A stretch of 32,000 nt of DNA from Candidatus Micrarchaeum sp. (GTDB taxonomy: Archaea > Micrarchaeota > Micrarchaeia > Micrarchaeales > Micrarchaeaceae). Positions 9,553 through 32,000 of this stretch are shown piece by piece (within the stretch, counting starts at the first letter, position 1; every line of letters starts with the position of its first letter). The notes under the pieces are model-generated. The model had not been told where the DNA came from and ran no database searches. It saw only the letters and a program-made list of their open reading frames with translations. The stretch is from assembly GCF_016806735.1 (NCBI RefSeq), contig NZ_CP060530.1, positions 390,001 through 422,000 on the forward strand, given 5' to 3'. A program made the translations under genes and the position numbers.

Positions 9553-9603
9553 CAATAATATAGATAAGGAATCCTTAAATATCCTTGCGGAATGGCTGTA
9601 TAT

Positions 9604-10557: not shown

Positions 10558-10578
10558 GATAAGCAATATAAAGTGTAT

Positions 10579-13500
10579 ATGATGGGAAAAGCTTTATTAA
10601 AAGCCAAGCCGGTTGCTTTTTATGCTTTGGCGGTTATGATTTTGCTATCACTGTTAGCATCTTTTTCTATTGGGCAATCCTTATCATATCAAGCTGCTCC
10701 AAATTCCAGCATATTAAAACCTCCAATAATGACGCCAACATTCACTTGTCCTAGCGGTACAAGTGCCCAGAGCAATGTAGTATACTCGAGCAATACGGTG
10801 CTTGGATCAGATGTTTGCGCATTTAACATACTGGTAAAAAAGAATGTTGTACTTCAAACTAACGGATATGCGATATATGCGCTCAGCACTTTCATAAATA
10901 ACGGCACTGTAGAAAACAGGAATGGTGGCAGCGGCGGGTCATCCTATTCGGATTTGAGCGGCAACGGCAACGGTGGCAATGGCCCTGATACCAGCAGCTT
11001 AACTGGCTCATTGGCTGGTGGCAACGGAGGCGCTCCAAACTACCAATCATTTAGTGTAGGATTCACTGTTGCATGGGGTTCAGGCGGAGGCGGCGGTGGT
11101 GGCGCAAACGCTACTGGTGGGTACAATTCGTCACATAGCGGCAACTCACAAGGCGGCAACTATGGCGGAGGCGGAGGCGGCGGAGGCGCTTGGGCAGGCG
11201 GCGGAAATAATGGTGCCAACGGCGGAGGTTACATAGAAATTTATGCGGACAGATTCATAAACAACAATCTCATAACTGTCTCTGGGCATAATGCGAGTGG
11301 CTCTGCTGCTTGGGCAGGCGGTGGCGGTGGCGGAGGTTTCGTTTATATAGAAATAACTACGAGCATACCAAAATATGCGGTTTTGGGAAACATAGATGCC
11401 AACGGCGGCAACGCTGCCGGGGTATCCCATAGCTCCTACTGCGGTGGCGGAGGCGGAGGCGGCGGAGGAGTCATAGAAATAACTACAAATTATGGCATAC
11501 TTCCTACACAAACATATCAAGGATTTTCTTCAAGCTATCCTGGCCTAACGTCAAATGGTGGATCAAATAGCGCAGAGGGCAGTACTCCTTGTGCAAATGG
11601 CAACCCTGGCAGCGACGGTGAAATAGCCATAACGAATTTGCCTCCTGTTCCACCTCCGAGCGGTTGCACGGGCCCAGGCAAAACTTATACTGAAACCAGT
11701 GGCTACTGCGTTTTCATTAATTCCACTTATATAACAACACCATATCCAGATGCGTTGGGTGGCTCGTTAGAACCTTCTAAGGGATACACATCGGCCCAGC
11801 CTACAACGGCAAACCAGCTCAACTATGAGGAGCAGAACGCCCAATGGCTGCTTACATGCCCAATAGCTCCGAATCCTCTTTATACTGCCGACTATTTCAA
11901 TACTTCAACGCCACAATTCATATCTGGAAACAGGTGCCTGGCAAGCACGAATCCCCTAAGCACCACAATAACAATTAATACGACTGTTTCATGGTCTCGC
12001 AATACGATAGCCAATTCCACAACAAAGTTCACAATAACGAACCCAGGTGTGCTTACAGTAGCGAATCTCGGATATTCGGGTTCTGCACAAATGATGAACT
12101 CGTCATATGCAATATCCAACATATATAACACGGAGTCTTATATATTCAAGCAGCCAAGCACGACAAGTGAATCTGGGGTGTGGACCTGGACGCTCGAGTT
12201 TGTGAATTTCAGCAAGCTTACAGGCAGCCAGATTTCGAGCCTTTCCCAGAAAAAGAGGGAATTCCCAAAGCCCGACAGCCGCTTCCCGTATCTAGAATAT
12301 TATAACAGCACTAACGACTGTCTGTACAACTACACTTATTCCGAGTCGGTGGACTTCAAGGGCATACAAAACCAAAAGATACCGATACCTGTAAATCTCC
12401 CTTATGAATTGCCCCAGAGGATAATATTTCAGAATGGCTCAGTTGCTGAAACTTCCAGCACTGCACATGCAGGAACCGGGTGCGCCCAATGGCTGTTTTG
12501 GGATGGCGGCGTATACGGCGGCACAGGTTGCAGCTTTAATAGTCTAAACGAAGTATCAAATTCCGCAACATTCTATTATGCGAATACAATACAACCCGGA
12601 GGCTCTGGCTGCATTGCTGGCAGTTGTCAGGGTCATACATCTTACGTGTACACTGCAAACGACTTTGTAAAAGGGGTAAACAAATATGCAAACGATTATC
12701 TCGTTGCTACGGCAAGCTATAAAGGATTTGGAGGTCCTTTTAACGGTTGCTATAATCCATTAGGATGCCTATACGACTACAGAGCTTATGCGATACCTTC
12801 CTCGCAGCTACATTTCTCCGAGGTGGCTGCAATACCTTACCTGCTTTACAACTTGTCAACACCTGCTACTGTCAGCGACGTTAACGGCAGGACAAGATAT
12901 CTGAACGAGTCGTATGACTTATACAGCCCACATAACTATCTAAACCCTAACGACCTTGAGCCATATGGGTTGCATACTGGCTCTTCATTCTTCGCCACCC
13001 TAATCAACAGCTCCGGCTCTTATTTTGTGGAGTATCCATATTCATCTGTATCTATGACTTCCAACGCAGCTTTCGACGACCCGAATCCGGATTTCATAAC
13101 TGCGCTTAACACAAGCCAGCAGCAGGCCCAGACTAGCAGCTCCAACCCTCTTTCGGCGCTGTTAAGCAAGCCAGTAGGGTTGTTCAAGTCCGGGGCTGTG
13201 CTTTCCCCATCATACGCAATCGCGACCCCTAACGACTTCATATACATAATAAATCACACTGTGTCGTCGGGCTTGTTCAATACGAACACGAAGAGTTACC
13301 TCTATACTGTAAGAATGATACCTTTTGGCTATTACAACCTTACAAACATACAGCCCAACTTCGCTGTCAATTCGCTTGCAACCGATTCGCCGTATAGCAC
13401 CAATTCGCTGTGGGTTACGGCATGGGAATCATATTGGAAAGACGCCCTTGCGGAGCAGGGCCAAAACTATTACATAACAAATCTTACCAGCATATCTAGC

Positions 13501-16500
13501 AGCAATACTTATGCCTGCTGGTCATGGACACTCAGCTGCGTAAACGGCAAGAATGCAGTGCTAAAGGCATTTATCCCTACGTCGGTAACATCGGACTATG
13601 CTGATGACATATTCCTAGCCGGTCTGGACGGCAAAAATAGCAATCTTGAGCTTGCAGCGTACTTTACCAACTATTCTAGTTCTAATCCAAGCGCAAGCCA
13701 GGTCACTCACGTCATAAGCCCGTCAAGCGATGCAGGCTTCAAACTGGCCCAAGAAATAGCTACGACCTCTGGAGGCCAGTTCTTATACCTGTCTAATTCG
13801 AGCTACCCGAACATACCTATGTTCTCGTCAAATACCTTGACATACGAGCGCAACATTAGCCTTTCGTATTCCAACTTAACATATAATCTGAACATCTCTT
13901 CATATCTGGCGCACGGAGGACCGTTCGGAAGCAACACCGTGGCAGCGGCTTATTCGGGCACTGCCAATACTCTTGACGTTTCATCAAATCATCATCCTCT
14001 GGCCATATTCGACTACGGTGACCTTCTCTACGTAATTGACGACTGGTCATTTACTGTAAATGGCTTGCCATCGAGCATAATGACGATGCGCGTATTTTTC
14101 CCTAACGGCACCGCCATACCTATCGACGGGCAAAATTATGACGACATGATAGCCAACGCCTCATATCCCGGGGTGGATCTTTCAGGAGTAAACATATCAA
14201 CTACCGTTTCAGACCCCCCATATGGGTGGCCGCTCTCGGCAAACATATCTGTGGGAAACGGCAATTATGTTTCATACTGCGCTGCGGGATGCGAATACGG
14301 CCCCTCAAGCAGCATAAACTACAACGGATATCCTCCAATAGGGCCTTTCATTACCACTGGCGGTTTTCCATCTCCCAACCAGAACGACCTTGGCTTCTAT
14401 ATGAACTACAACGGCACGGCCTACATGATAGCGCACGTGCTGGTGCCTGCGACTTCAGGTTCCTGCTACACAACTAGGACAGGCAGGTACTGTTCTCAAC
14501 CCACATACAAAGGAATGTACACAGAATTCCTTAGGTTTGTGCCGCAGGTGGTTAACTACACCAAGATATCGCTTTCATCCTACGCGAATTATGGATGCCT
14601 GATAAATACGTCAACCAGTGGCGTATGCGCCCAAAACAACTACATATCGCAGATATATCCTCCATTCGCCGCCGCACCTAGCCCTATTAAGTCGGTCCTT
14701 GGCGAAGGCTCGGCAACTGATTACTACGATGCACAGGCGCTTTCGGAATCTCTCTTTCCGAATGGCCTCAGCGGCTACGGAAGCAGTTATGCCTCAGGGC
14801 AGGAAAGCGGAATCAACAGCCAAAGCTCGAATACTGCCCTCAACTCTGGCCTTACAAATAATGGGATAAGTTCAATACTTCCAGGATCTACTGTAGCGAG
14901 CTTCATAAAGCTTACCTCTTCTGTAGGAGGTTACGCCCTTATACCTTACAATGCTTCATATACTGTGACAAAATCTTGGCAGCTTATAAGCACCGATCCA
15001 TCTGGCTGCACGAACGTGCTTCCATCAAACACGACCCTTACGTATAACAGCTATTCGGTGCTGCAGGTCAATGCGACTCCATCTTCCTCGAATGCTCTCG
15101 TAGAGGGAGGTCCAACTTACTTTAAGGACATACTCTCAAATTTGTTCTACAATGCCAACATATCCGATAACAATTCCATAATATCCCCGAGCTCGGCATA
15201 CAATATATTTACCAACAGGCTTTTCGGCTCGGTGATGCTCAACCAGAGCATAAACTCATCCGGAGCTTCGGTACAGAAGATGATAAACTATTCCAGGATG
15301 TACAACTACAGCCTTTACAACGTATTACAATCGGCTGGCGGAACGGATTACCCTGGGTACGCTTATTCAAAAGTGGAGCTTGCCAATATAAGCACAACGC
15401 CCCCCTCCAACACGCCCGTTTATGGGGTTGCCAATTCGCTCATAACCAATCCAGTTCCATTTAACGGGAACAACATATTCACATACGTTAACAATTCGGA
15501 GACCAGCTTTGCCAACCTGTTCCAGCAGTTCACGTATTTCAAGTACTACGACCTGATGTCAATATCGTTCCCGAACGACGGACAGATACTAGGTTACAAC
15601 AGGCTGATCTACGTACTTCAGGACTCCTTCAACAACACAATATACGCACCCATGGATCTGGACATAGCAAATACTACTGTGATAAACGTGAACGTCAATC
15701 CGATAGTGAGTGCAATCAACGCCAACCAGACACTACTTAACATAAGCGGCTCTGCAGGTTACGTATCTGGAATATACTCAAAAAGCTTCGTGCCTCTGCC
15801 AGAGGGATCAAAAATATATCTTTATTACGATACGCCGCTCAATTACTTCAATTCCTCGGAAAGCCCCTACGTGTCAAGCCAGCTTGCGAACTACTACACG
15901 TATGCAGAGAAATGTGCATTTGGGGCGAATCCTGGGGCGAAATGCAATTTCGCAGATCCGCTAAATGAATACATACAGGGAAGCACAGGCGCTCTGGAAG
16001 CAAATGCTATATCATATAACCCTCAATATAACAGCTCCGGCGTATGTGCTGCGCCTCCAAGGCATAGCCTGCTAAATATAACCGTTCCGACGGATTGCAG
16101 CATATACAACAATACTGCGGTTGTACTTCCGAATACCGTTGTTGGCAACATACCGGAAGCAGCGTATACGCGCTATTGCGAGCCAGAGTATAACAATGGC
16201 ACCGGCGTGCTGACTTCGCAGCTTGGCCTTGCAGCCATAGTAAGCACCAATAGCAATGGCGGATTTTCAACAAACACTATAACCGCCTGTGGCACCGGAA
16301 CCGGCCAGATAATTGCAAAGTACTACGGAGGCCCTGGCCCAGAGCCGCAGAAATACTCACAGCCGTCAATAGCCAATTCCATATTGTCGCTAAGCCCTAC
16401 GCAGACTGCCCTATCTACATACGAATACAATTATTCATTCGCACCAAACCAGACATCTGCGTCATTTAACCTAGGCAGCTATTACCTCAGCATGGGAGAC

Positions 16501-16611
16501 ATAAGCATTGCGCTTACGCTTGTAGCAATAGCTGGAATAATTGCCTACCAAATATCATCAAAGCGCAGGCAGTTTTCAGGTATTGCGCACGCCAGCAAAC
16601 GCTCCAGATAA
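10579..16611 (+). CDS. giant (~2010 aa) secreted, C-terminally membrane-anchored, sequon-rich surface protein (S-layer/adhesin candidate)
   Basis: Has a Sec-type signal peptide (MMGKALLKAKPVAFYALAVMILLSLLASFSIGQS). Composition is rich in N/S/T/Y, with many tens of N-x-S/T sequons. The C-terminus has a TM helix ISIALTLVAIAGIIAYQI followed by a basic tail SSKRRQFSGIAHASKRSR. The ATG at 10579 is preferred over the GTG at 10573. Confidence 0.85.
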   Translation: MMGKALLKAKPVAFYALAVMILLSLLASFSIGQSLSYQAAPNSSILKPPIMTPTFTCPSGTSAQSNVVYSSNTVLGSDVCAFNILVKKNVVLQTNGYAIYALSTFINNGTVENRNGGSGGSSYSDLSGNGNGGNGPDTSSLTGSLAGGNGGAPNYQSFSVGFTVAWGSGGGGGGGANATGGYNSSHSGNSQGGNYGGGGGGGGAWAGGGNNGANGGGYIEIYADRFINNNLITVSGHNASGSAAWAGGGGGGGFVYIEITTSIPKYAVLGNIDANGGNAAGVSHSSYCGGGGGGGGGVIEITTNYGILPTQTYQGFSSSYPGLTSNGGSNSAEGSTPCANGNPGSDGEIAITNLPPVPPPSGCTGPGKTYTETSGYCVFINSTYITTPYPDALGGSLEPSKGYTSAQPTTANQLNYEEQNAQWLLTCPIAPNPLYTADYFNTSTPQFISGNRCLASTNPLSTTITINTTVSWSRNTIANSTTKFTITNPGVLTVANLGYSGSAQMMNSSYAISNIYNTESYIFKQPSTTSESGVWTWTLEFVNFSKLTGSQISSLSQKKREFPKPDSRFPYLEYYNSTNDCLYNYTYSESVDFKGIQNQKIPIPVNLPYELPQRIIFQNGSVAETSSTAHAGTGCAQWLFWDGGVYGGTGCSFNSLNEVSNSATFYYANTIQPGGSGCIAGSCQGHTSYVYTANDFVKGVNKYANDYLVATASYKGFGGPFNGCYNPLGCLYDYRAYAIPSSQLHFSEVAAIPYLLYNLSTPATVSDVNGRTRYLNESYDLYSPHNYLNPNDLEPYGLHTGSSFFATLINSSGSYFVEYPYSSVSMTSNAAFDDPNPDFITALNTSQQQAQTSSSNPLSALLSKPVGLFKSGAVLSPSYAIATPNDFIYIINHTVSSGLFNTNTKSYLYTVRMIPFGYYNLTNIQPNFAVNSLATDSPYSTNSLWVTAWESYWKDALAEQGQNYYITNLTSISSSNTYACWSWTLSCVNGKNAVLKAFIPTSVTSDYADDIFLAGLDGKNSNLELAAYFTNYSSSNPSASQVTHVISPSSDAGFKLAQEIATTSGGQFLYLSNSSYPNIPMFSSNTLTYERNISLSYSNLTYNLNISSYLAHGGPFGSNTVAAAYSGTANTLDVSSNHHPLAIFDYGDLLYVIDDWSFTVNGLPSSIMTMRVFFPNGTAIPIDGQNYDDMIANASYPGVDLSGVNISTTVSDPPYGWPLSANISVGNGNYVSYCAAGCEYGPSSSINYNGYPPIGPFITTGGFPSPNQNDLGFYMNYNGTAYMIAHVLVPATSGSCYTTRTGRYCSQPTYKGMYTEFLRFVPQVVNYTKISLSSYANYGCLINTSTSGVCAQNNYISQIYPPFAAAPSPIKSVLGEGSATDYYDAQALSESLFPNGLSGYGSSYASGQESGINSQSSNTALNSGLTNNGISSILPGSTVASFIKLTSSVGGYALIPYNASYTVTKSWQLISTDPSGCTNVLPSNTTLTYNSYSVLQVNATPSSSNALVEGGPTYFKDILSNLFYNANISDNNSIISPSSAYNIFTNRLFGSVMLNQSINSSGASVQKMINYSRMYNYSLYNVLQSAGGTDYPGYAYSKVELANISTTPPSNTPVYGVANSLITNPVPFNGNNIFTYVNNSETSFANLFQQFTYFKYYDLMSISFPNDGQILGYNRLIYVLQDSFNNTIYAPMDLDIANTTVINVNVNPIVSAINANQTLLNISGSAGYVSGIYSKSFVPLPEGSKIYLYYDTPLNYFNSSESPYVSSQLANYYTYAEKCAFGANPGAKCNFADPLNEYIQGSTGALEANAISYNPQYNSSGVCAAPPRHSLLNITVPTDCSIYNNTAVVLPNTVVGNIPEAAYTRYCEPEYNNGTGVLTSQLGLAAIVSTNSNGGFSTNTITACGTGTGQIIAKYYGGPGPEPQKYSQPSIANSILSLSPTQTALSTYEYNYSFAPNQTSASFNLGSYYLSMGDISIALTLVAIAGIIAYQISSKRRQFSGIAHASKRSR
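11083..11469 (+). repeat. four in-frame (GGN)7-9 triplet runs encoding polyglycine, each followed by an x-IEI-type hydrophobic strand
   Basis: Runs of 7 Gly at 11083-11103, 8 Gly at 11164-11187, 7 Gly at 11317-11337 and 9 Gly at 11443-11469. Protein context is GGGYIEIYADRF, GGGGGGGFVYIEITT and GGGGGGGGGVIEITT. Confidence 0.85.
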
Positions 16612-19608: not shown

Positions 19609-20082
19609 TTATTTAGTTATCTCGGCGATTATCTCTTCGCTTGCGCTGTTTTGCGGCATTACTATGTAGTCTGCACCCGCTTCTATCATCTTTTCCCTTA
19701 CGAGCTTGTCGTTGGCCCTGGTTGCTATGAATATGTTTTTGTTGAGATCCCTCGCCGTCAATACTGCGAACAGGTTCTTCGCGTCGTTGTCCATCGCTAT
19801 GGCTATCGCCCTGGCAGAAGCTATCCCGGCGTTTTTCAGAACGTGCGACGAGGTGGCATCTCCCTCTATTACGTCGTATCCCTTCTCCATGCTCTTGGCA
19901 GCTACGTTGTGGTCATACTCAACTATCACGAACTTTATCCCGTGCTCGTGCAGAGTCTCTACTATCCTCTGCCCTACGACCCCATAGCCGCATACTATCG
20001 TATGGCCCGAAAGCGATTCCAAAACAACACCAGCACTATTAAGATGCCAATTCAAATTTAAATAGTGATGTGGTGCGCTCAC
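19609..20082 (-). CDS. soluble TrkA-N/RCK NAD-binding domain protein
   Basis: 157 aa. GxGxxG Rossmann motif HTIVCGYGVVGQRIVETLHEHGIKFVIVEYD. The GTG start forms a GTGA overlap with the upstream stop (20079-20081). Confidence 0.75.
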   Translation of the reverse strand: MSAPHHYLNLNWHLNSAGVVLESLSGHTIVCGYGVVGQRIVETLHEHGIKFVIVEYDHNVAAKSMEKGYDVIEGDATSSHVLKNAGIASARAIAIAMDNDAKNLFAVLTARDLNKNIFIATRANDKLVREKMIEAGADYIVMPQNSASEEIIAEITK

Positions 20083-20345
20083 TCTCGCTTCATGCCGTCT
20101 ATTCTGCGGACGTAATCCGCCAGCGCTTTCATGATTCGCGTGTGCGCTCCCTTTACCCGCATCCTCGTATCGCCTATGTCGGCGTAAACGCCACCACTTT
20201 CGTCTACATGGAAATGTATGACGCTTCGCCCCCTGAAATAGAAATGTGCCGTTCTCTTTTCTCTGACGCCACTAATGCTTCTTATCTTGCCCAGCAAAGG
20301 AGCAATATCGGCAAGGTCACCTGCTTTTGCGTGTCTCATCTGCAT
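20079..20345 (-). CDS. small hypothetical protein (88 aa)
   Basis: The ORF 20079..20441 is trimmed to MQMRHAKAGD... (ATG 20343-20345) because the upstream part overlaps tRNA-Gln. It is translationally coupled to the RCK gene downstream. No motif was recognised. Confidence 0.45.
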   Translation of the reverse strand: MQMRHAKAGDLADIAPLLGKIRSISGVREKRTAHFYFRGRSVIHFHVDESGGVYADIGDTRMRVKGAHTRIMKALADYVRRIDGMKRE

Positions 20346-20362
20346 GCCGCGATAAATATAAT

Positions 20363-20455
20363 TAGCTCCAGCCAGATTCGAACTGGCGTTTACGGCTCCA
20401 GAGGCCGCCGTCCTTTTATGGTGGCAGAGCGCCATGACCACTAGACGATGGAGCT
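20363..20455 (-). tRNA. tRNA-Gln(CUG): tRNA-Gln, anticodon CUG, 93-nt precursor with a predicted 20-nt D-loop intron
   Basis: Minus-strand read: acceptor AGCTCCA/TGGAGCT (A1-U72, typical of archaeal tRNA-Gln). T arm GCCAG-TTCGAAT-CTGGC, anticodon arm GCGGC-CTCTGGA-GCCGT, variable AAAC. D stem GTCT/GGAC is separated by 29 nt that fold into a bulge-helix-bulge. Removing 20 nt gives a 73-nt tRNA with D-loop AGTGGTCAA. Confidence 0.8.
20416..20435 (-). other. predicted non-canonical tRNA intron (D-loop)
   Basis: The intron is ATGGCGCTCTGCCACCATAA on the minus strand. The central 4-bp helix is GTGG/CCAT and the 5' bulge is TCA. The inner hairpin is TGGC-GCTCT-GCCA and the 3' bulge is AAA. The exact register within the bulges is assumed (cut after the second bulge nucleotide). 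Confidence 0.6.
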
Positions 20456-20480
20456 AATCGCATATTATTTTGTCGCATGT

Positions 20481-20489
20481 ATTTTAATA
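20481..20489. promoter_or_regulatory. TATA-like box between tRNA-Gln and the M50 protease gene
   Basis: attttaata. The ttttaata at 20482-20489 lies 22-29 nt upstream of the ATG at 20511. Its reverse complement tattaaaat lies about 26-34 nt upstream of the tRNA-Gln 5' end. Confidence 0.4.
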
Positions 20490-20510
20490 CCTTGCCGATA
20501 AATTAAGCCT

Positions 20511-21206
20511 ATGCAGTTCAGGCCAAACATAACAAGAACGGAAGAGATAAAGCAGATCGCCATGGCCGACGCTGCCCTTACTGTAGCCTTTTCGATAGCC
20601 TTGGCTGGGGGCATATTCGGCAACCTTGGCAATGCGGTAGTGCTTCTGCCAATAGCTTTCGTTGCGGTTACGCTGAGCTTCGTGCTCCACGAGCTGATGC
20701 ACAAGTACGTTGCTCAGCACTACGGAGCCATAGCCGCTTTCCAGACGTCCCCTATGGGGCTCATCATAACTCTGGGTACGAGCATATTCGGCTTTCTCTT
20801 CGGAATTCCGGGAGCCACCGTGATATACACTAATTCGTTCACCGTAAAGCAGAATGGCGTTACATCGCTTGCGGGTCCGCTAACAAACTTTGCAGTATTC
20901 GCAGTATTCTTTGTAATATTCATTTTTGCGCCAGCCAATACATACTTTAGCACTATGGCTTCCATTGTAATGTTCATAAGCATACTTCTTGCATTCTTCA
21001 ACATGCTTCCGATAATGCCGCTTGACGGAAGCAAGGTGCTCAGGTGGAACAGGAAGGTATATTTCTCTTCTTTGGGGGTGATAATGGTGCTGATGGGCAT
21101 TGCCTATTACTCCCTTTTCCATAGTGTGGCCGGAATGGTAACAGAAGTAATATTCATGCTATTCATAGCCGTGTTCTTCTCCATGTTCTACAGGAACGTG
21201 CTTTGA
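20511..21206 (+). CDS. M50 family (site-2 protease-like) membrane zinc metalloprotease
   Basis: HELMH (HExxH) at nt 20688-20702 lies inside a TM helix. A second motif, FNMLPIMPLDGSKV (NxxPxxxLDG), is present. Polytopic membrane protein of 231 aa. Confidence 0.85.
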   Translation: MQFRPNITRTEEIKQIAMADAALTVAFSIALAGGIFGNLGNAVVLLPIAFVAVTLSFVLHELMHKYVAQHYGAIAAFQTSPMGLIITLGTSIFGFLFGIPGATVIYTNSFTVKQNGVTSLAGPLTNFAVFAVFFVIFIFAPANTYFSTMASIVMFISILLAFFNMLPIMPLDGSKVLRWNRKVYFSSLGVIMVLMGIAYYSLFHSVAGMVTEVIFMLFIAVFFSMFYRNVL

Positions 21207-22625: not shown

Positions 22626-24260
22626 ATGGTAAAAGACACGCCAAAAAAACAGGATGGTGAAGAAACGGACAAGGCACAAGATGCTGCGAAAGAAGTTCCT
22701 GAGGAGAAAATACTAGAGGCTTCGGAAAATACGCAGCAGGGAGCGGAAAGCGCCCCTTCAGACAAGGTCAAATCGGAGAAAATTCTAGAACAATACAATC
22801 TTAATGCGCACGGGATGGCCATAGGGGTTGTCATAAAAACAAATCCCAACGAGTTTGTTCCTACTTACAACGTTACTTACGAGGGCGTCAGCGACGCGAC
22901 AAAGCTGCTCCTAATGTCGTTCAGGCGCGAACTCATATCGATGGTGCCTCTGGACCCTACGAAGGTAGAAATACAGGCATATGTAGACGACCTCAATAAG
23001 AGATATGTACAGGCCAGCAAGATACTGATCGACAGATACCTGCCCAACACTGACGAGGACACGAAGAACATACTCACTGCCTACATACTCAACATGATGC
23101 TGGGCCTCGGGGACCTGGAAGTGCCGCTATCGGACGAGAACCTTGAAGAAATAGCTGTCAACGGCTCCAAGAGCTTCATATGGGTTTTCCACAAGAGGAT
23201 AGGCTGGTGCAAAACCAACATAAAGCCCACGAGCGAGGATGCGATCTACGACCAGGCAGAGCAGATAGGCAGGCGCGTAGGGAGGGAGCTCAACAACCTT
23301 TCCCCGCTCATGGATGCAGAGCTTGTCGACGGCTCCAGGGTCAACGCTACCCTGTATCCGATATCGCAGATAGGCAACACAATAACGATAAGGAAATTTG
23401 CCAAGAACCCCTGGACAATGCCGGCTCTGGTAAAATCAGGTAGCCTGCCCCCTGAACTGGCAGGCCTGCTGTGGCTATGCATACAGAACGAAATAAGCGT
23501 GCTTATATCCGGAGGAACGGCAAGCGGAAAGACCTCTTTCCTTAACGCCTCAAGCGTATTCTTCCCGCCTACAAGGAGGATAATATCTGTTGAAGAAACA
23601 AGGGAGCTCGCGCTTCCGGATTCGCTGCAGTGGGTTGCAATGGTATCAAGGCAGCCGAACCCTGAAGGCAAGGGAGAAGTGACGCTTTATGATCTAATGA
23701 TAAACGCGCTCAGGCAGAGGCCTGACATAATGCTAGTTGGAGAAATCAGGACCGGAAAGGACGCCGAGACGCTATTCGAGGCCATACACACTGGCCACTC
23801 GGTATATGCTACGGTCCACGCAGACAACGCACAGGACACGGTGGTAAGAATGACCAACCCTCCAATAGCTACGCCCAAAATCCAGATGAATGCTCTCGGA
23901 GCCATAGTGAGCCTCTTCAGGCACAGGAGCAAGGGCATAAGGCGTACGCTGGAATTCGCAGAGATGCTTAGGACTGGAGATGCCAACGTGCTATACAGGT
24001 GGAACATGAGGAACGACACGTTCGCGCAGATAAGCGACCTCACGAACATGGCAGACGTGCTTTCGCTATACGGCGGATATACAAAGTCGGAAATAGCGGA
24101 AGAGGTCAAGATAAGGGCCAAGATAATAAATTGGATGATAAAATACAACGTGATAGACATAAACAATGCTGGCTTCCTTATAGCCAACTACTACATGGAC
24201 AAGGACAGGGTCATAAACATGGTGGATAAGGACATTCCTTATTCAAAGGAGTTGTTTTGA
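22626..24260 (+). CDS. type IV filament assembly ATPase (FlaI/GspE/VirB11 superfamily), locus 2
   Basis: 544 aa. ggtg at 22618-22621 precedes the ATG. Walker A is ISGGTASGKTSFLNA (nt ~23511-23537). Also present are ISVEETRELAL and PDIMLVGEIRTGKDAETLFEAIHTGHSVYATVHA. There is an acidic/Lys-rich ~60-aa N-terminal extension with EKILE twice. Confidence 0.9.
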   Translation: MVKDTPKKQDGEETDKAQDAAKEVPEEKILEASENTQQGAESAPSDKVKSEKILEQYNLNAHGMAIGVVIKTNPNEFVPTYNVTYEGVSDATKLLLMSFRRELISMVPLDPTKVEIQAYVDDLNKRYVQASKILIDRYLPNTDEDTKNILTAYILNMMLGLGDLEVPLSDENLEEIAVNGSKSFIWVFHKRIGWCKTNIKPTSEDAIYDQAEQIGRRVGRELNNLSPLMDAELVDGSRVNATLYPISQIGNTITIRKFAKNPWTMPALVKSGSLPPELAGLLWLCIQNEISVLISGGTASGKTSFLNASSVFFPPTRRIISVEETRELALPDSLQWVAMVSRQPNPEGKGEVTLYDLMINALRQRPDIMLVGEIRTGKDAETLFEAIHTGHSVYATVHADNAQDTVVRMTNPPIATPKIQMNALGAIVSLFRHRSKGIRRTLEFAEMLRTGDANVLYRWNMRNDTFAQISDLTNMADVLSLYGGYTKSEIAEEVKIRAKIINWMIKYNVIDINNAGFLIANYYMDKDRVINMVDKDIPYSKELF

Positions 24261-24889
24261 TGGATGAGAACGGCATAAGCACAAAAAGTGAATACGAACA
24301 GGTAGTTGTCTACATAAAGGGCATAGAGGCATCTACACAGAAGCCGCAGCAGTCTTCAATAAACGTATCAAAGTTGTTTGAAACGAATGAAAATTCCAAT
24401 TCCCATACTTATCTAGACCTGCTAAGCAGGATAGATTCCATAGAGAGCAACCGCGGTGGCCAGCGCATAAGGTCACAGAAGACCATGCCTAAGGAATCGC
24501 AGCTGATAGCTTCTGGGGTCGAGCAGTCCAGCAGGGCGTCCGCAGTCCCAACCGCAGCGCAACAGAGCTTCGAAGTCCCGGAGTCCAGGCCACAGCCAAA
24601 GATAAAGGTCAAGTTCAACGAGAAGGATCTGGTCCTGCCCAAGCTTTCCATAGCCGACCAAATATCCGAGCTTGAGCGCATAATCGAAGGGCTGAAGGAG
24701 CAGGTTTTTGATGAAAACCACAAGGAGGTCGTGCTGCAGGAAATATACGGCCTGTCTGCCTATATAGAAAGGTCGTCCAAGGACTTAAGGAAGAGGAAGA
24801 TAACGCTTAACCAGACTGAACAGTCGTTATGGGCGTTGAGGCAGCAGCGCCTTGACGAGGCCATGGGCCTGATAAACGCCGGTGCCTAA
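24260..24889 (+). CDS. soluble hypothetical protein (Q/S-rich centre, C-terminal coiled coil) in TFF locus 2
   Basis: TGATG overlap with the ATPase stop. 209 aa, no TM helix. The C-terminus ISELERIIEGLKEQVFDENHKEVVLQEIYGL...LRQQRLDEAMGL is helical or coiled. Confidence 0.6.
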   Translation: MDENGISTKSEYEQVVVYIKGIEASTQKPQQSSINVSKLFETNENSNSHTYLDLLSRIDSIESNRGGQRIRSQKTMPKESQLIASGVEQSSRASAVPTAAQQSFEVPESRPQPKIKVKFNEKDLVLPKLSIADQISELERIIEGLKEQVFDENHKEVVLQEIYGLSAYIERSSKDLRKRKITLNQTEQSLWALRQQRLDEAMGLINAGA

Positions 24890-24891
24890 AC

Positions 24892-25929
24892 ATGTTCGGA
24901 AAGAAAAAGCCAAAAGTTGTCAACGTAAACGGCAAGGACATAGCGCTTCAGCCTAAGCCCGGGATAGGGTCAAAGCTTTTCCAGCAGCCGGATCGCAGCA
25001 AGTCGCAGCCAATAATGCCATCCCAGCAAATCCCCCAATACGGATCTGGTATAAATCCAATATCGCAGTCAAAAGCCCAGCCCCAGAAAAAGCCAGGGAG
25101 ATGGCATCTTTTCGTAGAAGGCATAGGCGCGAAGCACAAGGGGCTTGAGCAGACGCTCAAGGATCAGGGCATAAAGGGCACGCTCTACTCGTTCGTGGAA
25201 AGGATGATAATAGCGGCAATGGCCATAGGCATCGTCCTTGGCATAACGTTCTTCGTCCTTTTCCTGCATCTCGGCCTGCTTTTCCCCGTCGCTGCCGTGC
25301 TTGCGCTTCTGCTAGGCTTTGTCGTCTTCTATATGGGCATGAATATGTTCCTCAACTTTCCAAAGCACAAGACAAAGAAAAATGCAAAGGGGGTGGAGAA
25401 GGACATACTGTTTGCCGCGAGGGACATGATAATAGCGCTCAGGTCCGGAATGCCGTTGTTCAACACTCTGGTTTCCATAAGCTCGGGATACGGCGATGCG
25501 AGCAGGGAGTTTCAAAAGGTTGTCGAGCGCGTCCAGCTTGGCATGCCTCTAGAAGAGGCCATAGACCAGACCATAGCAGAGAGCAAGAGCGACTCTTTCA
25601 AGAGGATAATGCTGCAGGCTTCTGTTAGCATAAAATCAGGTGGCGACGTTGTGTCTGCAATACAGAGCGTCATAGACCAGCTTTCCGAAGAGAGGGTCAT
25701 AGAGCTCAGGAGGTACGGCCAAAGGCTGAACGCCATAGCAATGTTCTACATGCTTTTCGGAGTAATACTGCCAAGCATGGGTATAGCGGTAGTAACGATA
25801 CTCACTACTTTCATAGCTTTGTTCACGGTAACACCGCAGCTTCTGGAAGCAGGCTTGATAGCGATAGGTTTCCTGCAGATTGTGTTCCTGCAGATGATAA
25901 GGGGCTCGAGGCCTTCATTCTCGACGTGA
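24892..25929 (+). CDS. platform membrane protein with T2SSF domain (TadB/TadC/FlaJ-half), locus 2
   Basis: ggtg at 24881-24884. It has a Q/P-rich ~100-aa N-terminal extension followed by TM helices. The T2SSF-like core is ILFAARDMIIALRSGMPLFNTLVSISSGYGDASREFQKVVERVQLGMPLEEAIDQ, followed by C-terminal TM helices. Confidence 0.78.
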   Translation: MFGKKKPKVVNVNGKDIALQPKPGIGSKLFQQPDRSKSQPIMPSQQIPQYGSGINPISQSKAQPQKKPGRWHLFVEGIGAKHKGLEQTLKDQGIKGTLYSFVERMIIAAMAIGIVLGITFFVLFLHLGLLFPVAAVLALLLGFVVFYMGMNMFLNFPKHKTKKNAKGVEKDILFAARDMIIALRSGMPLFNTLVSISSGYGDASREFQKVVERVQLGMPLEEAIDQTIAESKSDSFKRIMLQASVSIKSGGDVVSAIQSVIDQLSEERVIELRRYGQRLNAIAMFYMLFGVILPSMGIAVVTILTTFIALFTVTPQLLEAGLIAIGFLQIVFLQMIRGSRPSFST

Positions 25930-25933
25930 TTAA

Positions 25934-26944
25934 ATGGCAAAAAACATATTCAGCAGGATAAACTTCGAGAGGCTAGTTTCCAGGAGCGTAGCAAGGTTCA
26001 TATCAAAAACGCTGGACCTAGCGGGCTCAAAGATGGATGTCAACACTTTCCTTAGCATAGTCATAGTCGGAGGTTTCACCATACTTATAATACTCGCTTT
26101 TGCGCTCTACCTGATAATGCACCTTAACCTGCTGCTGGCCCTCGGCGGCGGCATAGTGGCCGCGCTTCTCTTCGCGGTTGTAATGTACATGATGCTCAAC
26201 TATAAAATAGACCAGAGGAAGACGTTCGTCGAATCGATACTTCCGGACTATTTCGCGCTGGCTGCGGCCAACCTCAAAAGCGGCATAGCATTGGACAGGT
26301 CCATGCTGCTCGCTGCAAGGCCTGAATTCAAGTACTTCACATCTGACGTTCAGGCAATGAACAGGAACGTATTCGGAGGAGAAACGTTCGAGAACGCTCT
26401 TCGCGATCTAGCTGGCAAATACAAATCGAACAATTTCCAGCATTCGGTAAGGATGATGATAGAGGCCCAGAAATACGGAGGCGCAATGGCCGACCTCATG
26501 GAGCAGCTCTCAAAGGACATGAGGAGCCAGCAAATGCTGCAGAAAGAGGTTTCAGGTCAGCTCCTCATGTACAGCCTGTTCATAGCTTTCGCCGGCCTGA
26601 TAGCAGCTCCAGTGCTTTACGGCCTTACCAGCCAGATGATTGTAATAACGGACACAGTCTGGAAAGGCATACTCGCTTCAAATCCGGGAGGGCTACCTAC
26701 AACCGGAGTGTCTTTCCTTAAGCCAAGCCCGCCAAAGATAAGCCCTACTACTTACCATAACTTCTCGCTAGTTGCGATAAGCGTCATAACTGGTTTCGCA
26801 GCGCTCATAATGTCTACCATATCTTCCGGCAGCACTACAAAAGGGATGAGGCTCGTACCACTTTTCATAATAGTGGGCCTTGGCATATATTTCGTAGTCG
26901 GAGGCGTAATAGCATCGCTGTTCAGCAGCTTCGGCAGTCTGTGA
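25934..26944 (+). CDS. platform membrane protein with T2SSF domain, second half, locus 2
   Basis: 336 aa. TM helices, then ILPDYFALAAANLKSGIALDRSMLLAARPEFKYFTSDVQAMNRNVFGGETFENALRDLA, then further TM helices. Starts 4 nt after the previous stop. Confidence 0.78.
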   Translation: MAKNIFSRINFERLVSRSVARFISKTLDLAGSKMDVNTFLSIVIVGGFTILIILAFALYLIMHLNLLLALGGGIVAALLFAVVMYMMLNYKIDQRKTFVESILPDYFALAAANLKSGIALDRSMLLAARPEFKYFTSDVQAMNRNVFGGETFENALRDLAGKYKSNNFQHSVRMMIEAQKYGGAMADLMEQLSKDMRSQQMLQKEVSGQLLMYSLFIAFAGLIAAPVLYGLTSQMIVITDTVWKGILASNPGGLPTTGVSFLKPSPPKISPTTYHNFSLVAISVITGFAALIMSTISSGSTTKGMRLVPLFIIVGLGIYFVVGGVIASLFSSFGSL

Positions 26945-27117: not shown

Positions 27118-30100
27118 CTATCCAGGCACGTATTCCACTCCGCAGTTGCCATTTACTACCTGCGAATTGGTGCACGCGACCGAAGGCGAATCGTAAAGAT
27201 AAGCATAATTTGTGTAGTTGGCCACGTTCTCCGTCTCGTTTAGCATGTTAAGGTTTCCCGAGCTCAACGGCCAATAATCTGCAGGGCCAATGCCCTCTAC
27301 ACTGTTGTTGAGGTAAAGCTGCTCAGCCATGCTTGGAGACATGGCTGATTTGTAAAGCTGCACGTCTGCGATTGTTCCGGAAAATGCGTTGTCAACCCCA
27401 GCCGGCTTGGAGCCTGTAGTATAAGTTGTCCAGTAATCAGCACCGCTGGAAGGAGCATATGTTCCAGTACTGCTATTAACCTTGGTTCCGTTAACGTAAA
27501 AAACCTCACTTGCACTAGTGGAATTATAGGTTATTATGAGGTTGTACCATCCAGATCCCCGAAGCGTGTAATTCAACGGTATGTTACTGTTAACTCCATT
27601 TACCCATCCATGTACTTTCAACCCGTTCTCGCTCAGCAAGGGAGCACTTCCTCCTGTGCCTCTAACTGCTATTATTGGCCCGTTTGTGCTCGGAGTTGCG
27701 TAAACCCATGCTTCTGCAGTTAAGCTGTTGTCAGTGCCAAAATAGCTGCCTATTGGCGCATATTCATATCCGTTTCCATTGAAGCTTGTTGCAGCCGGCA
27801 CTAGCCCATCCTGCATTCCAAGGCTTGTGCTAGCATTCATATATCCAAGGCCAGCGTCCTCAAGCGGCAAACCAGAAAGGTAGAGCCTTTGCGCAGTGGC
27901 GTTGCATGAGCTCATGCTGTCGCATCCAAGCACTCCCTCAAGCGGGCTTGTGGAAGCGGGAAGCTCTTGAGGGTCGAAAATGGCTCCTGTTATAGTTCCA
28001 TTTCCCGAAGGACCAAGATAGTTATTCGCGTTGCCGTCTAGCTGCCACCACCCAATGGCGCTATTTTCATTCTGGCTTGGTCCTGCAGTAGATCCGTTTA
28101 AATATATCCATTTTGCCTGCGAATAATTTAAGGTACTGGCGTAAAGCTGCACGTTCGATATTGTGGCATTCGCAATCTCATCTCCTCCTGGCGGATTGTC
28201 ACCAATACCGAGTGCCAGGTTTTGCGAATTGTCTATCACCGTCGAAAGAGTTGTAGTTATCACGCAGTTATTCTCCTTGTTGCCGTTTATGTATACTGTT
28301 ATGTTGGTATAGTTGTGCACTGTGACAACTGCGTTGTACTTGACATCGGGCTTTATCAATCCTGCAGGCGTATCGCAAAACTGCCAGTTCTGCGGCCAGT
28401 ATTCTCCCCAACCAAACTGCGATGATGAACCACCCGCCCAAGCGCCTCCGAAGTCGTAAGCCTGTCCGCCACCTACTCCTCCGTTTGTTGTCGCATTGTA
28501 CAAGTCTATTATTGGGCTCCAACTGTTGTCAGTCGGGTCTATTGCGCTTTTCAACTCAAACCACATGCTTACTGAATAATTAAAGCCAAGCTTGCTGAAC
28601 GGCACCTTGGCCGCATATATTCCTCCAGTTGCATTTATTGTTGCTGCGCTGGATACGTAATTCTGTTGCAGCTGGCCTGTAGGTTCAAGCGTATAACCAT
28701 TTACTCCAGAGTATATGACGTTGGTCGGCACTCCGTTGTATCCGTTCCCGCTGTAGTCGTTTGCATTGCTCGAAAGCGGATACCATGCGACGAGTCCGGA
28801 TTCATTAACTGACATTGCGTTTATTCCCTGTAAATAAATGCCATGCAATTGCAAGCTAGAAAGCGTTGAATTATAAACTTGTACATTGGCTATCGAACCG
28901 TTCAGCTGGCTTATGCCTTGTGCTGATTGGCCTATTGCCAAGTCTTGGATAGAATACGGCCCGCCAACTATGCTTACTTTATATGCTGGCATATTATTAT
29001 CGTAGAATGTTGCAATACCGTTTGAAACACTTACAGCGACAAAATTCCATGTTGAATTGGTAATTCCGTATCCGTGGTAAAAATTGCTGCCGAATCCTAT
29101 TTCTTCGTTTCCGCTTCCAGGGGCTGCAGCGTTACTACCGCCATTGTTGAGCCACATCTCGAAATTATTTGTTCCTTGAGAGTTTAAAATCGTATACCCG
29201 TTTCCGCTTTCCATCTTCGACAAACTTTTAGGATTCACCCAAAAAGCTACAGTAAAATTGTATGTGCTTGCTATCGGTATGCTTGTTGTAATTTCGCTAT
29301 TGCCGTTAAAATTTGCCGCATTCCTGTCGATGCTTCTGAACGAGAATATGCCTTCTGGGGATTTGGCATATGGCTTGCCCTCTGTCCTCTGCAGGTATGA
29401 AGCAGTATATGGAGAAGCGTAATAGAAGCCCCCAACAGCGCTGCTCTGTATCGCTGATGTGTTCAGCAGGTCCAAGCCTGCCCCATTTATCAGGAAATTG
29501 GGCTCGTCCTGGAGATAACTCATTATCGTGTCGTTTTTGTAAACCAAGTATGGCTTTAAAGGCGTAGACGAATTGGATATATTGGTTATAAGTCCTGCCA
29601 TTCCGCAAACGTTTTGGCCAATGTCCGCAGCGTTTGGCGTTGCAAGTATATAATTGCCGTTTGTATATTCGCTGGGCACATTCGAGCACGAAGGTTCTCC
29701 TGCCATGTATATTATCTTTCCATACGCAAACATGTACGGGCTTTCGGACCCAGATTCTGCAGTAAGGTTTCCTATTATGGTTGCTTTTGGGAGCACTTCC
29801 TTCTGGAACGTGCCGTTGAGGCCCTGCTCGGCGCCTATCAAAGAGGGCTTTGAATTCAAGCTGACAGTCGTATTGGCGTTTATCGGATAATCAAGGCTTA
29901 TGCCGCTGCTCGTGTTGAGCGCTGCAAGTCCCGTCACATAAACGCCTATCCTGAAAGGTGCAGCCTGCTTTACCCTTAACGTAACATTAGAAAGGTTTGC
30001 CGTAAACCCGTCGGTCAACGCTTCGGCTTCAAATTCGCTTACTGCTTTTTTGAAGCTGTTATTGTAATAAGCGGTGCTGTTGAAAATAGTGCCGTTGTAC

Positions 30101-30426
30101 AAAAGGCCATAAAGGACATCGCTTGAATTGGTTATAAAGTTGCCCATCCTTGTTGCAGGATCGCTTTCGAAAGCTATCATTATGCCTATAGATTTGGACA
30201 TGCTTGAGTATAAGAATGCGTTCATTCCCGAATCTAAGTTCTGGGCAAAGTTCCCGGAAGCAAGGCTCTGTGCGACGCTGGAAGAAAGGTTGTCGTAGTT
30301 TATGTTCAGTACCACATAGGTTATAACCTCTCCGAGCATTAGTATGAATATGACTAGAGTGAGCAGCGTAAGCAATATGCCTCTCTTGCTTTTTGGCTTT
30401 CTCGGTATTTTTTTCTTCAGCGCCAT
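27118..30426 (-). CDS. giant (1102 aa) surface protein with several LamG/concanavalin-like jelly-roll modules and a class III-like N-terminus
   Basis: N-terminus is MALKKKIPRKPKSKRG/ILLTLLTLVIFILMLGE. Module openers repeat: WYPLSSNANDYSGNGYNG, WWQLDGNANNYLGPSGNG and YWPLSSGNLN. Module closers also repeat: GSIANVQVYNSTLSSLQL, ATISNVQLYASTLNYSQA and GTIADVQLYKSAMSPSMA. There are many N-x-S/T sequons. It overlaps the upstream gene by 10 nt. Confidence 0.85.
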   Translation of the reverse strand: MALKKKIPRKPKSKRGILLTLLTLVIFILMLGEVITYVVLNINYDNLSSSVAQSLASGNFAQNLDSGMNAFLYSSMSKSIGIMIAFESDPATRMGNFITNSSDVLYGLLYNGTIFNSTAYYNNSFKKAVSEFEAEALTDGFTANLSNVTLRVKQAAPFRIGVYVTGLAALNTSSGISLDYPINANTTVSLNSKPSLIGAEQGLNGTFQKEVLPKATIIGNLTAESGSESPYMFAYGKIIYMAGEPSCSNVPSEYTNGNYILATPNAADIGQNVCGMAGLITNISNSSTPLKPYLVYKNDTIMSYLQDEPNFLINGAGLDLLNTSAIQSSAVGGFYYASPYTASYLQRTEGKPYAKSPEGIFSFRSIDRNAANFNGNSEITTSIPIASTYNFTVAFWVNPKSLSKMESGNGYTILNSQGTNNFEMWLNNGGSNAAAPGSGNEEIGFGSNFYHGYGITNSTWNFVAVSVSNGIATFYDNNMPAYKVSIVGGPYSIQDLAIGQSAQGISQLNGSIANVQVYNSTLSSLQLHGIYLQGINAMSVNESGLVAWYPLSSNANDYSGNGYNGVPTNVIYSGVNGYTLEPTGQLQQNYVSSAATINATGGIYAAKVPFSKLGFNYSVSMWFELKSAIDPTDNSWSPIIDLYNATTNGGVGGGQAYDFGGAWAGGSSSQFGWGEYWPQNWQFCDTPAGLIKPDVKYNAVVTVHNYTNITVYINGNKENNCVITTTLSTVIDNSQNLALGIGDNPPGGDEIANATISNVQLYASTLNYSQAKWIYLNGSTAGPSQNENSAIGWWQLDGNANNYLGPSGNGTITGAIFDPQELPASTSPLEGVLGCDSMSSCNATAQRLYLSGLPLEDAGLGYMNASTSLGMQDGLVPAATSFNGNGYEYAPIGSYFGTDNSLTAEAWVYATPSTNGPIIAVRGTGGSAPLLSENGLKVHGWVNGVNSNIPLNYTLRGSGWYNLIITYNSTSASEVFYVNGTKVNSSTGTYAPSSGADYWTTYTTGSKPAGVDNAFSGTIADVQLYKSAMSPSMAEQLYLNNSVEGIGPADYWPLSSGNLNMLNETENVANYTNYAYLYDSPSVACTNSQVVNGNCGVEYVPG

Positions 30427-32000
30427 ATCACCACACTCAGGTTATCTGTCTGCAATTCATTTCCTCTCCTAAGCGAAATCGGTATAGAAGACTTGCTTAC
30501 GGAGTAAGCATTCACAAGGCTAGGCGGTGTGAATGGTATCGATACATAAGAAATATCATATGGTATCGCAGCGTCGCCGTTCCCGCTGTAGTCGTTGGTA
30601 TTCCCATCAAGCGGCCACCATCCGACAAGATTGGAGTTTCCAAGTGCCATGCCGCTTATGCCCTGCAAATACAAATCGTAATACTCATTCGGGGCCAAGG
30701 TCTTATTATAAATTTCAAGGTTTGTTATAGATCCGTTAAAAGTGCCTGTAATGCTGCCTGGATTTCCGGTAGCTCCTATTATTGTGTTTCCGCTCTCTGC
30801 TATTACATTGCCAGTGGCATAAACGTTTTTCAAAACCCCTCCGTCATAGCTTATGTTGGCTATGGAAGCATTTCTTGTGAATCCTATCTGCGACCATGCT
30901 CTCGCCTGCACTACCTCTGTGCTGCAATTCCATGTGCTTCCCAAGCTAGTCCCCTGAAGCTGTATACAAATGCTTCCAGATCCATTTATTCCAAGTGCAT
31001 AGCTTCCCTGTTTGTCAACTACTATGCATGTTGGTGTGGTTGCACCGCACGTACCTAATCCTTCGGGGTATATCCATGTAGATACTGTCATGTTCGGATT
31101 TCCTACGTCTAGAAGGCTGTTGTTGTATACCAAGCCGTAGCTTCCAGCTGTTGTATTGAAGAACGAAACGCTTTCGGAGCCGGAATAATTGCCATTTATA
31201 TATATGCCTGCCCTTGGCTGTCCCAATACAGAATCGTTCAGGAGAAACTCTGCATACATGCTGTCGTTGTTGAGGTACAGCTCTCCCAATGTTTCCGCTA
31301 TGCTTTCGTTTATGCTGGCGTTGTAATCTCCTATTGGGAGGTAATCCGTAACCACATAGTTCACGTTGTGCGGTATGCCATCATTTCCATTGCCGCTGTA
31401 ATCGTTGGAATTCTTGTCGAGCGGCCACCAACCTATAAGTTTCGAATTTCCTATGGGCACGCTGTTTATCGCACTCTTGTAAAGTTGGTATATCTTGCTC
31501 GGTGTCAGGGAAGAATTGTAGAGCTGCACGTTGGCTATGTAGCCTGTGAAATTGTATTCACCAAGATTACTGCTCCCTACTCCTCCCCCTGTCCCTAGCG
31601 CAGTACCAATTAGCAGATCTTTCAATACTGCAGTACTGGAGCTTGAAACATAATATGGCGTTTCTATTCCGTTTATAAAAATTGCAATAGCAGAAGAATT
31701 TCCGCGTATTGACACATAGGTCCATTTGCCTACCGGTACCGAGCCACTTCCAGATACTGGGCAATTCGTATACCATCCGTTTACGTATATTCCCGTACCG
31801 TTGTATCCGACTTCGACCGAATGCGTTGTGTTACCCAAATAAACTACGACGCTTGCGTTATTCCCATCCCCTGTCCCGCATCCGCTCACTGGCCTGCCCT
31901 CTTTTGTAGGTTTTATCCAAAAAGACAAGGTAAAACTGTTTTCTCTGACAGGATTAGTCGGTGCCGATATATAGCTTCCGTTGGCCAAGAAGCCCGAATA
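30417..32000 (-). CDS. multi-LamG surface protein, N-terminus beyond the window
   Basis: The frame stays open to nt 32000 (YSGFLANGSYISAPTNP...), so the start in the ORF track (TTG at 31988) is not real. Openers are WWPLDKNSNDYSGNGNDG and WWPLDGNTNDYSGNGDAA. Closers are GYIANVQLYNSSLTPSKI and GSITNLEIYNKTLAPNEY. Confidence 0.85.
   Translation of the reverse strand, partial: YSGFLANGSYISAPTNPVRENSFTLSFWIKPTKEGRPVSGCGTGDGNNASVVVYLGNTTHSVEVGYNGTGIYVNGWYTNCPVSGSGSVPVGKWTYVSIRGNSSAIAIFINGIETPYYVSSSSTAVLKDLLIGTALGTGGGVGSSNLGEYNFTGYIANVQLYNSSLTPSKIYQLYKSAINSVPIGNSKLIGWWPLDKNSNDYSGNGNDGIPHNVNYVVTDYLPIGDYNASINESIAETLGELYLNNDSMYAEFLLNDSVLGQPRAGIYINGNYSGSESVSFFNTTAGSYGLVYNNSLLDVGNPNMTVSTWIYPEGLGTCGATTPTCIVVDKQGSYALGINGSGSICIQLQGTSLGSTWNCSTEVVQARAWSQIGFTRNASIANISYDGGVLKNVYATGNVIAESGNTIIGATGNPGSITGTFNGSITNLEIYNKTLAPNEYYDLYLQGISGMALGNSNLVGWWPLDGNTNDYSGNGDAAIPYDISYVSIPFTPPSLVNAYSVSKSSIPISLRRGNELQTDNLSVVIWR

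Follow-up and report, generated by a model that had tools for sequence, protein, structure and literature searches.

A probable splicing-endonuclease intron of 20 nt in the D-loop of a tRNA-Gln(CUG) gene of 'Candidatus Micrarchaeum'

A stretch of 32,000 nt from the contig NZ_CP060530.1 of 'Candidatus Micrarchaeum' was analysed (hereafter the window, meaning this whole stretch of DNA), in which positions 20363-20455 of the minus strand were read from the sequence as a pre-tRNA-Gln(CUG) of 93 nt without an encoded CCA. This locus is very probably a functional gene for tRNA-Gln(CUG) in a 'Candidatus Micrarchaeum' of the AZ1/A_DKE type, near ARMAN-1, carrying in its D-loop a 20-nt intron of the kind removed by the splicing endonuclease. 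A preliminary description of this DNA had claimed such an intron, the removal of which would leave a 73-nt tRNA-Gln(CUG), and this was borne out by the ARAGORN call, by natural intronless genes of identical sequence and by covariation among orthologs.

Results

Anatomy of the interrupted gene and its natural uninterrupted counterparts

The features of the locus are collected in Table 1, in which the numbering of the RNA relates to the window as RNA position p = window coordinate 20456-p. Read from its 5′ end on the minus strand, the complete RNA of the 93-nt gene is AGCUCCA-UC-GUCU-(A GUGG UCA UGGC GCUCU GCCA CCAU AAAA)-GGAC-G-GCGGC-CUCUGGA-GCCGU-AAAC-GCCAG-UUCGAAU-CUGGC-UGGAGCU-A, with the interrupted D-loop in brackets. 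The acceptor stem (AGCUCCA/UGGAGCU), the anticodon arm (GCGGC-CUCUGGA-GCCGU) and the T arm (GCCAG-UUCGAAU-CUGGC) were all perfect, while the D stem (GUCU/GGAC) contained one U-G pair and its halves were separated by 29 nt; thus, the three intact arms and the 29-nt spacing claimed beforehand were all present. Moreover, the anticodon CUG (20401-20399) lay in the 7-nt loop CUCUGGA with U33, and the features A1-U72 and A73 of a tRNA-Gln were found together with it. The same identity features were shared by about 100 uninterrupted tRNA-Gln genes recovered in a pattern scan of metagenomes. When the 93-mer was folded with RNAfold, as had been suggested earlier, a cloverleaf with an additional hairpin in the D-loop was obtained (-38.5 kcal/mol, z = -2.9), and in-silico removal of 20416-20435 left a 73-mer with the D-loop AGUGGUCAA.

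Table 1. Coordinates of the tRNA-Gln(CUG) locus in the window; arrows mark predicted cut positions.
Feature	Position	Strand	Basis
Pre-tRNA-Gln(CUG) gene, 93 nt	20363..20455	-	Direct reading and MFE fold
5′ exon, 20 nt: acceptor 5′ strand, U8 C9, D-stem GUCU, D-loop A14 G15 U16 G18 G19 U20 C20a	20436..20455	-	Same sequence as the first 20 nt in the uninterrupted homologs L023, L031, L032, L060, L074, L099, L120, L129
Intron AUGGCGCUCUGCCACCAUAA, 20 nt, between nt 20 and nt 21 of the mature tRNA (about 20a/20b in Sprinzl numbering)	20416..20435	-	ARAGORN after deletion; 8 natural uninterrupted genes
3′ exon, 53 nt: A20b A21, D-stem GGAC, anticodon arm, 4-nt variable loop AAAC, T arm, acceptor 3′ strand, discriminator A	20363..20415	-	
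BHB central 4-bp helix, exon strand GUGG (G15 U16 G18 G19)	20438..20441	-	Pairs with CCAU 20418-20421
5′ splice-site bulge UC↓A, 3 nt	20435..20437	-	3-nt bulge in all 16 hairpin-bearing variants
Intron inner hairpin UGGC(G)-CUC-(U)GCCA	20422..20434	-	Compensatory double changes, four basal pairs
BHB central 4-bp helix, intron strand CCAU	20418..20421	-	Variants stay mostly paired
3′ splice-site loop AA↓AA, four A's opposite unpaired A14 (relaxed bulge)	20414..20417	-	Sequence and ortholog comparison
TATA-like box UUAAAAUA (putative promoter)	20480..20487	-	Located at -32 to -25 relative to the 5′ end of the tRNA, within the 55-bp spacer that separates the divergent tRNA and M50 genes

The metagenome collection was searched with one pattern scan, the reach of which covered introns of up to 30 nt, and a total of 113 stretches were obtained. 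In eight of these loci (the homologs listed with the 5′ exon in Table 1), an uninterrupted gene was base for base the predicted 73-nt product, so that the 20-nt intron was the only difference between them and the window gene. The boundaries of the intron were thereby fixed except for a slide of 1 nt, by which UC↓A...AA↓A and UCA↓U...AAA↓A yield the same product. The tRNA gene of the window lies 55 bp from a divergently transcribed gene of an M50-family protease (20511-21206), and the same protease gene adjoined the uninterrupted identical tRNA gene in five of the eight metagenome loci.

A different situation was observed for tRNA-Gln(UUG) genes of other archaea (L033, L057, L042 and L109), which had the same D-arm followed, after the anticodon loop CUUUGGA, by unrelated sequence starting with CUUUUGGUCACAAAG; these genes probably carry a long canonical intron at 37/38.

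Geometry and covariation of the splice motif

[quoted passage not shown] The preliminary description had proposed a near-perfect BHB with two 3-nt bulges, of which the 5′ bulge UCA and the central helix GUGG/CCAU stood, while the supposed 3′ bulge AAA proved to be four A's facing the unpaired A14, that is, a 1x4 internal loop. Therefore, the 5′ site was of the strict type and the 3′ site of the relaxed type, the latter appearing to be a slightly relaxed form of the bulge. The predicted cut positions, UC↓A and AA↓A, agreed with the rule that EndA cleaves ahead of the third nucleotide of the bulge (PMC12397907).

The minimum free energy fold offered another register, with a central helix of 5 bp (GUGGU/ACCAU). 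This was rejected, because the first base of the bulge could be U, A or G in different orthologs, whereas the base it would have to pair with remained an A; the orthologs with A or G at that position thus supported the 4-bp register proposed earlier, and with it the assignment of the 5′ site as a strict 3-nt bulge.

A total of 18 distinct intron-bearing variants, with introns of 13 to 31 nt at the same site, were collected from the orthologs found through the M50 protease and from the metagenome scan. Their exons varied little and were mostly identical to those of the window, although part of this invariance in the exon flanks, including the four A's of the 3′ site, was imposed by the metagenome search pattern; the four A's were also present in the orthologs fetched through the M50 protein (L012-L019). 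In the 16 variants bearing a hairpin, GUGG was followed by a 3-nt bulge (NCA or UCU) and then by an inner hairpin of 3 to 8 bp, four bases of the intron paired back to GUGG, and four A's preceded the D-stem strand GGAC. Compensatory double changes were found at all four basal pairs of the hairpin (UGGC/GCCA, UUGC/GCAA, UUUC/GAAA, UUGU/ACAA and CCU/AGG). As regards the central helix, 91% of the cells were paired among 11 distinct condensed variants, and the changes fell only on the intron side, as would be expected with G15, U16, G18 and G19 of the D-loop making up the other strand. The intron strands CCGU, CCGC, CUAC and CUAU remained paired, and CCAA and ACAU were each short of one terminal pair. 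Covariation was counted on a hand-condensed alignment from which the hairpin loops had been removed; in it, 96% of the cells were standard pairs, and none of 500 shuffles equalled the observed paired fraction or covariation score. Overall, the BHB motif was kept among the homologs while the intron sequence drifted (18 variants, a set partly selected by pattern, with pairs counted on a condensed alignment), and the recurrence of this architecture in 18 distinct homologous genes places it far beyond chance.

Furthermore, a 13-nt version of the D-loop intron (A/G CAUGAAAACCAUAA) without the inner hairpin was observed in related Micrarchaeota (L040 660-704, L047 2552-2596 and L111). These short introns would be bulge-helix-loop substrates, which endonucleases of strict specificity are not expected to cut.

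The variation in the length of the insert also bears on whether the 20 nt might be retained, giving a mature tRNA with an enlarged D-loop and an extra hairpin. The stable folding of the 93-mer with its additional hairpin would be compatible with that. Nevertheless, retention seems most improbable, as G18 and G19 would be locked in a helix with the insert and unable to make the contact between the D-loop and the T-loop, the insert was anywhere between 13 and 31 nt long in homologs with little variation in their exons, and the intronless genes adjoining the M50 protease gene corresponded exactly to the spliced sequence. In addition, both junctions lay in bulges 4 bp apart, which is the geometry recognized by the endonuclease of ARMAN-1 and ARMAN-2.

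Recognition of the gene by tRNA finders

The interrupted gene was reported by ARAGORN as a tRNA-Gly(acc) with a mismatched anticodon stem, in which the true anticodon arm was taken as a long variable arm, and a clean tRNA-Gln(ctg) was called once 20416-20435 had been deleted. With the Rfam tRNA model (RF00005), the interrupted gene scored 32.0 bits in a broken alignment that began inside the insert, versus 62.9 bits for the natural uninterrupted genes identical to the spliced 73-mer; hence, the rise in score expected beforehand upon loss of the intron was observed, with a natural sequence identical to the spliced product as the comparator. Five other intron-bearing orthologs were undetected by RF00005 at E <= 0.1. 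No further tRNA hidden in the window was revealed by a permissive Rfam scan. The earlier suspicion that routine annotation could miss the gene was thus justified, both by the ARAGORN miscall and by public gene calls, some of which run an ORF into the tRNA.

Taken at face value, the ARAGORN output would identify the locus as tRNA-Gly(ACC), the variable arm of which is long. This assignment requires mismatched pairs in the anticodon stem and turns a perfect anticodon arm (5 bp with a 7-nt loop) into a variable arm, and a variable arm of such length is, to our knowledge, not characteristic of tRNA-Gly. Moreover, orthologs differing only in the insert were called by ARAGORN as tRNA-Cys or not at all. 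The tRNA-Gly(ACC) reading was refuted by these unstable calls across orthologs, by the RF00005 scores and by the clean tRNA-Gln obtained for the spliced form, leaving it next to no credibility.

Conservation of the exons in orthologous loci

Orthologous loci were fetched through homologs of the M50 protein, independently of any tRNA search pattern, and in every locus of this set the D-loop of the tRNA-Gln(CUG) gene carried an insert at the same position. Twelve loci, from the same species and from ARMAN-1, had an identical 93-nt gene; the M50 protein of ARMAN-1 is 87% identical and its insert is the same as in the window. In the lineage of L014 (M50 82% identical), the insert was 31 nt long and its inner hairpin was extended to 8 bp, while the hairpins were UUGC-AAUC-GCAA in the L016/L017 lineage (74%) and UUUC-UUAC-GAAA in the Mancarchaeum-like L018/L019 lineage (57%). 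In the Mancarchaeum-like tRNA gene, the acceptor, anticodon and T stems had also changed in a compensatory manner. In total, the tRNA-Gln(CUG) and M50 genes were found together in 49 fetched loci, mostly about 100-250 bp apart and with M50 identities of 48-100%. The exons were often identical to those of the window even at about 50% M50 identity, and the intron drifted over the same span, which implies strong purifying selection on the exons and argues against a pseudogene.

Such a pseudogene, in which the insertion would have broken the D-loop and another genomic copy would decode, could account for the poor detector scores (32 bits with a broken Rfam alignment, and the ARAGORN miscall). However, decay would then be expected in the exons as well, and these were 100% identical in the window species, in ARMAN-1 and in lineages with 50-80% M50 identity, with an insert varying in both length and sequence; across the whole range of 48-100% M50 identity, they were either invariant or changed in a compensatory manner. 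The insert also retained a splice-competent BHB with compensatory changes, and the locus retained its TATA-like box. Indeed, in most of 25 orthologs examined, with or without the intron, a (T/A)AT(T/A)AAAA box preceded the tRNA by about 25-35 nt, and in the window it would act as a putative promoter. Furthermore, an ARMAN genome has about 43-45 tRNA genes in all (PMC3239211), a number from which most of them would be single-copy. A disabled gene is accordingly very hard to reconcile with these data, and the tRNA-Gln(CUG) considered here is probably the sole decoder of CAG in a small genome.

Source lineage and the predicted splicing reaction

The preliminary description had guessed at a source among ARMAN-type ultrasmall archaea, and the DNA was indeed placed in the Micrarchaeota, near ARMAN-1. 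Six fetched loci matched the window at 99.98-100% over 19 kb, including GCA_001896515.1, which is 'Ca. Micrarchaeum' sp. AZ1 (PMC6350386), and the type IV pilus-like ATPase (22626-24260) occurred in identical form on 16 public contigs. Of the other named relatives, ARMAN-1 was the nearest, according to the M50 protease and to the ATPase, which fell in the same 90% cluster.

In ARMAN-2, 56% of the 43 tRNA genes are disrupted (PMC3239211). A three-unit epsilon2 endonuclease of broad specificity has been described in ARMAN-1 (390 aa) and ARMAN-2 (387 aa), the two being 62% identical, and the ARMAN-2 EndA cuts both strict and relaxed motifs in vitro (PMC3239211); the structure of the latter enzyme has been solved with a BHB RNA (PMC12397907). 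The EndA queries were segments of the ARMAN-2 protein taken from the alignment of PDB 4FZ2. Among the best 120 of 3191 hits of a profile search, numerous three-unit EndA homologs (about 340-382 aa) were found in Micrarchaeota assemblies, one of them from the same sample as the ortholog L014, and the EndA of the source genome was absent from those 120. The EndA of broad specificity that had been predicted beforehand for this genome would be expected from the published enzyme of ARMAN-1. A tblastn search of the window and the fetched loci gave no EndA hit. With the catalytic unit of ARMAN-2 as the query, only proteins of about 95-220 aa were retrieved, the best match being 82% identical. No entry identical or nearly identical to the ARMAN-2 endonuclease (PDB 4FZ2) was found in a collection of 5.8 billion proteins, from which the enzyme of ARMAN-2 itself seems to be missing.

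An EndA-like ORF of 184 aa, comprising a catalytic C-domain and a beta-like unit, was observed in the locus L139 (1379-2555), together with an upstream ORF of 104 aa with a weak tRNA_int_endo_N match and a 300-bp gap. This arrangement suggests that frameshifts have disrupted a three-unit endonuclease gene, perhaps through an assembly error.

From these elements, a splicing reaction can be proposed for the tRNA-Gln(CUG) transcript. In the primary transcript, G15, U16, G18 and G19 of the D-loop would pair with CCAU of the intron to form the 4-bp central helix of the BHB. The 5′ splice site would then lie in the 3-nt bulge UC↓A, between the central helix and the intron hairpin, and the 3′ splice site in the A-rich loop AA↓AA, between the central helix and the D stem. 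Both sites would be cut by the three-unit epsilon2 splicing endonuclease of the lineage, after which an RNA ligase would join the exons of 20 and 53 nt. Splicing would free G18 and G19 for the normal contact between the D-loop and the T-loop, giving a 73-nt tRNA with the D-loop AGUGGUCAA, to which CCA would subsequently be added.

Flanking sequences and other features of the window

The spacer of 55 bp between the tRNA and M50 genes (20456-20510) contains one AT-rich box, UAUUAAAAUA, at about 25-32 nt from both start points, and this box may be a shared TATA element for both directions.

On the other side of the tRNA, an ORF of 88 codons (20079-20345, minus strand) starts 17 nt past the tRNA 3′ end and is followed by three TrkA_N genes, in agreement with the earlier statement that the tRNA sits 17 nt upstream of a protein-coding operon. 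The ORFs covering the tRNA on both strands had been considered spurious; both exist, and the 5′ extension of the minus-strand ORF over the tRNA is spurious, but its last 88 codons are conserved in ARMAN-1. The protein is 77% identical there, and the ORF is therefore probably a real small gene, for which no Pfam match is on record in public gene calls. In some of these calls, it is extended to 118 aa, overlapping 73 nt of the tRNA (forms reaching up to 20435/20441).

A comparable overlap was observed elsewhere in the window, where the 5′ end of a HIT/GalT-like ORF of 376 aa (8515-9645, minus strand) overlaps an uninterrupted tRNA-Thr(GGU) gene (9604-9677) by 42 nt; translation of this ORF probably begins further downstream. 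Moreover, the window harbours a pair of distinct type IV pilus-like gene sets (2223-3749 and 22626-26944), of which one has a T2SSE-family ATPase and the other a T2SSE-family ATPase and two T2SSF-family membrane proteins, as well as an ORF of 2012 aa (10573-16611) and two Laminin_G_3 proteins (27118-31988).

Discussion

The phenomenon, the lineage and the enzyme concerned have all been described before, and the gene of the window is a clean but ordinary example of them. It resembles the non-canonical BHB introns of ARMAN in belonging to the same genus-level lineage, in being short and located outside 37/38, in having strict or relaxed BHB motifs and in occurring where relatives encode an epsilon2 endonuclease (PMC3239211); in both cases, the common tRNA finders miss or miscall the genes. 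It differs from the introns of ARMAN-2 in that it is found in the D-loop of tRNA-Gln(CUG), in the branch of AZ1, A_DKE and ARMAN-1.

As for the Thermoproteales and other Crenarchaeota, the number of their non-canonical and multiple introns likewise tracks an endonuclease of broad specificity, although theirs is an (alpha-beta)2 EndA, an enzyme of another architecture in an unrelated lineage. The introns of the Thermoproteales have been argued to be recent gains by transposition (PMC3239211), whereas the intron of the window has homologous copies across deep branches of the Micrarchaeota. Compared with the canonical intron at 37/38, the same elements are present, namely an exon helix, a 4-bp helix between loop bases and the 3′ end of the intron, a 3-nt 5′ bulge, an intron hairpin, a 3′ bulge by the stem and the same cleavage rule. 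However, the intron is hosted here by the D-loop instead of the anticodon loop, four nucleotides opposite one unpaired base form the loop of the 3′ site, and the 13-nt variants of related lineages are of the bulge-helix-loop form, lacking the inner hairpin.

What is modestly new is that the intron looks old and repeatedly lost within the Micrarchaeota. The preliminary description had regarded it as a lineage marker, which held for all the lineages with at least 73% M50 identity, as these carry the intron, but not for more distant Micrarchaeota, where intron-bearing and intronless orthologs are mixed beside the same protease. On a neighbour-joining tree of the M50 protein (loci L009-L130; one short protein, drawn without support values), the intron-bearing and intronless lineages interleaved, and the introns of distant branches had a common core, UCAUUGC...GCAACCAUAA. 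This common core, and the presence of homologous copies across deep branches alongside intronless orthologs, point to an old origin followed by repeated loss. One old gain and several precise losses would be the simplest reading of this single short protein tree, and it is held tentatively; that the D-loop intron of tRNA-Gln(CUG) is an old feature, passed on vertically across much of the Micrarchaeota with repeated and precise losses, is a possibility that we consider somewhat less likely than not.

The current understanding of archaeal tRNA splicing is left unchanged by these results. In practical terms, Micrarchaeota genomes annotated without a search for non-canonical introns may seem to lack tRNA-Gln(CUG). 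The locus provides one more well-bounded D-loop substrate, as predicted, for the epsilon2 endonuclease, and the 18 intron variants, together with the intronless genes beside the same protease, form a comparative series for intron turnover. Non-canonical archaeal tRNA introns are commonly viewed as recent acquisitions. An old inherited intron, if true, would run contrary to that view, and it would offer a dated series at a single locus, including the 13-nt bulge-helix-loop forms, in which the gain and loss of an intron could be set against the evolution of the epsilon2 endonuclease.
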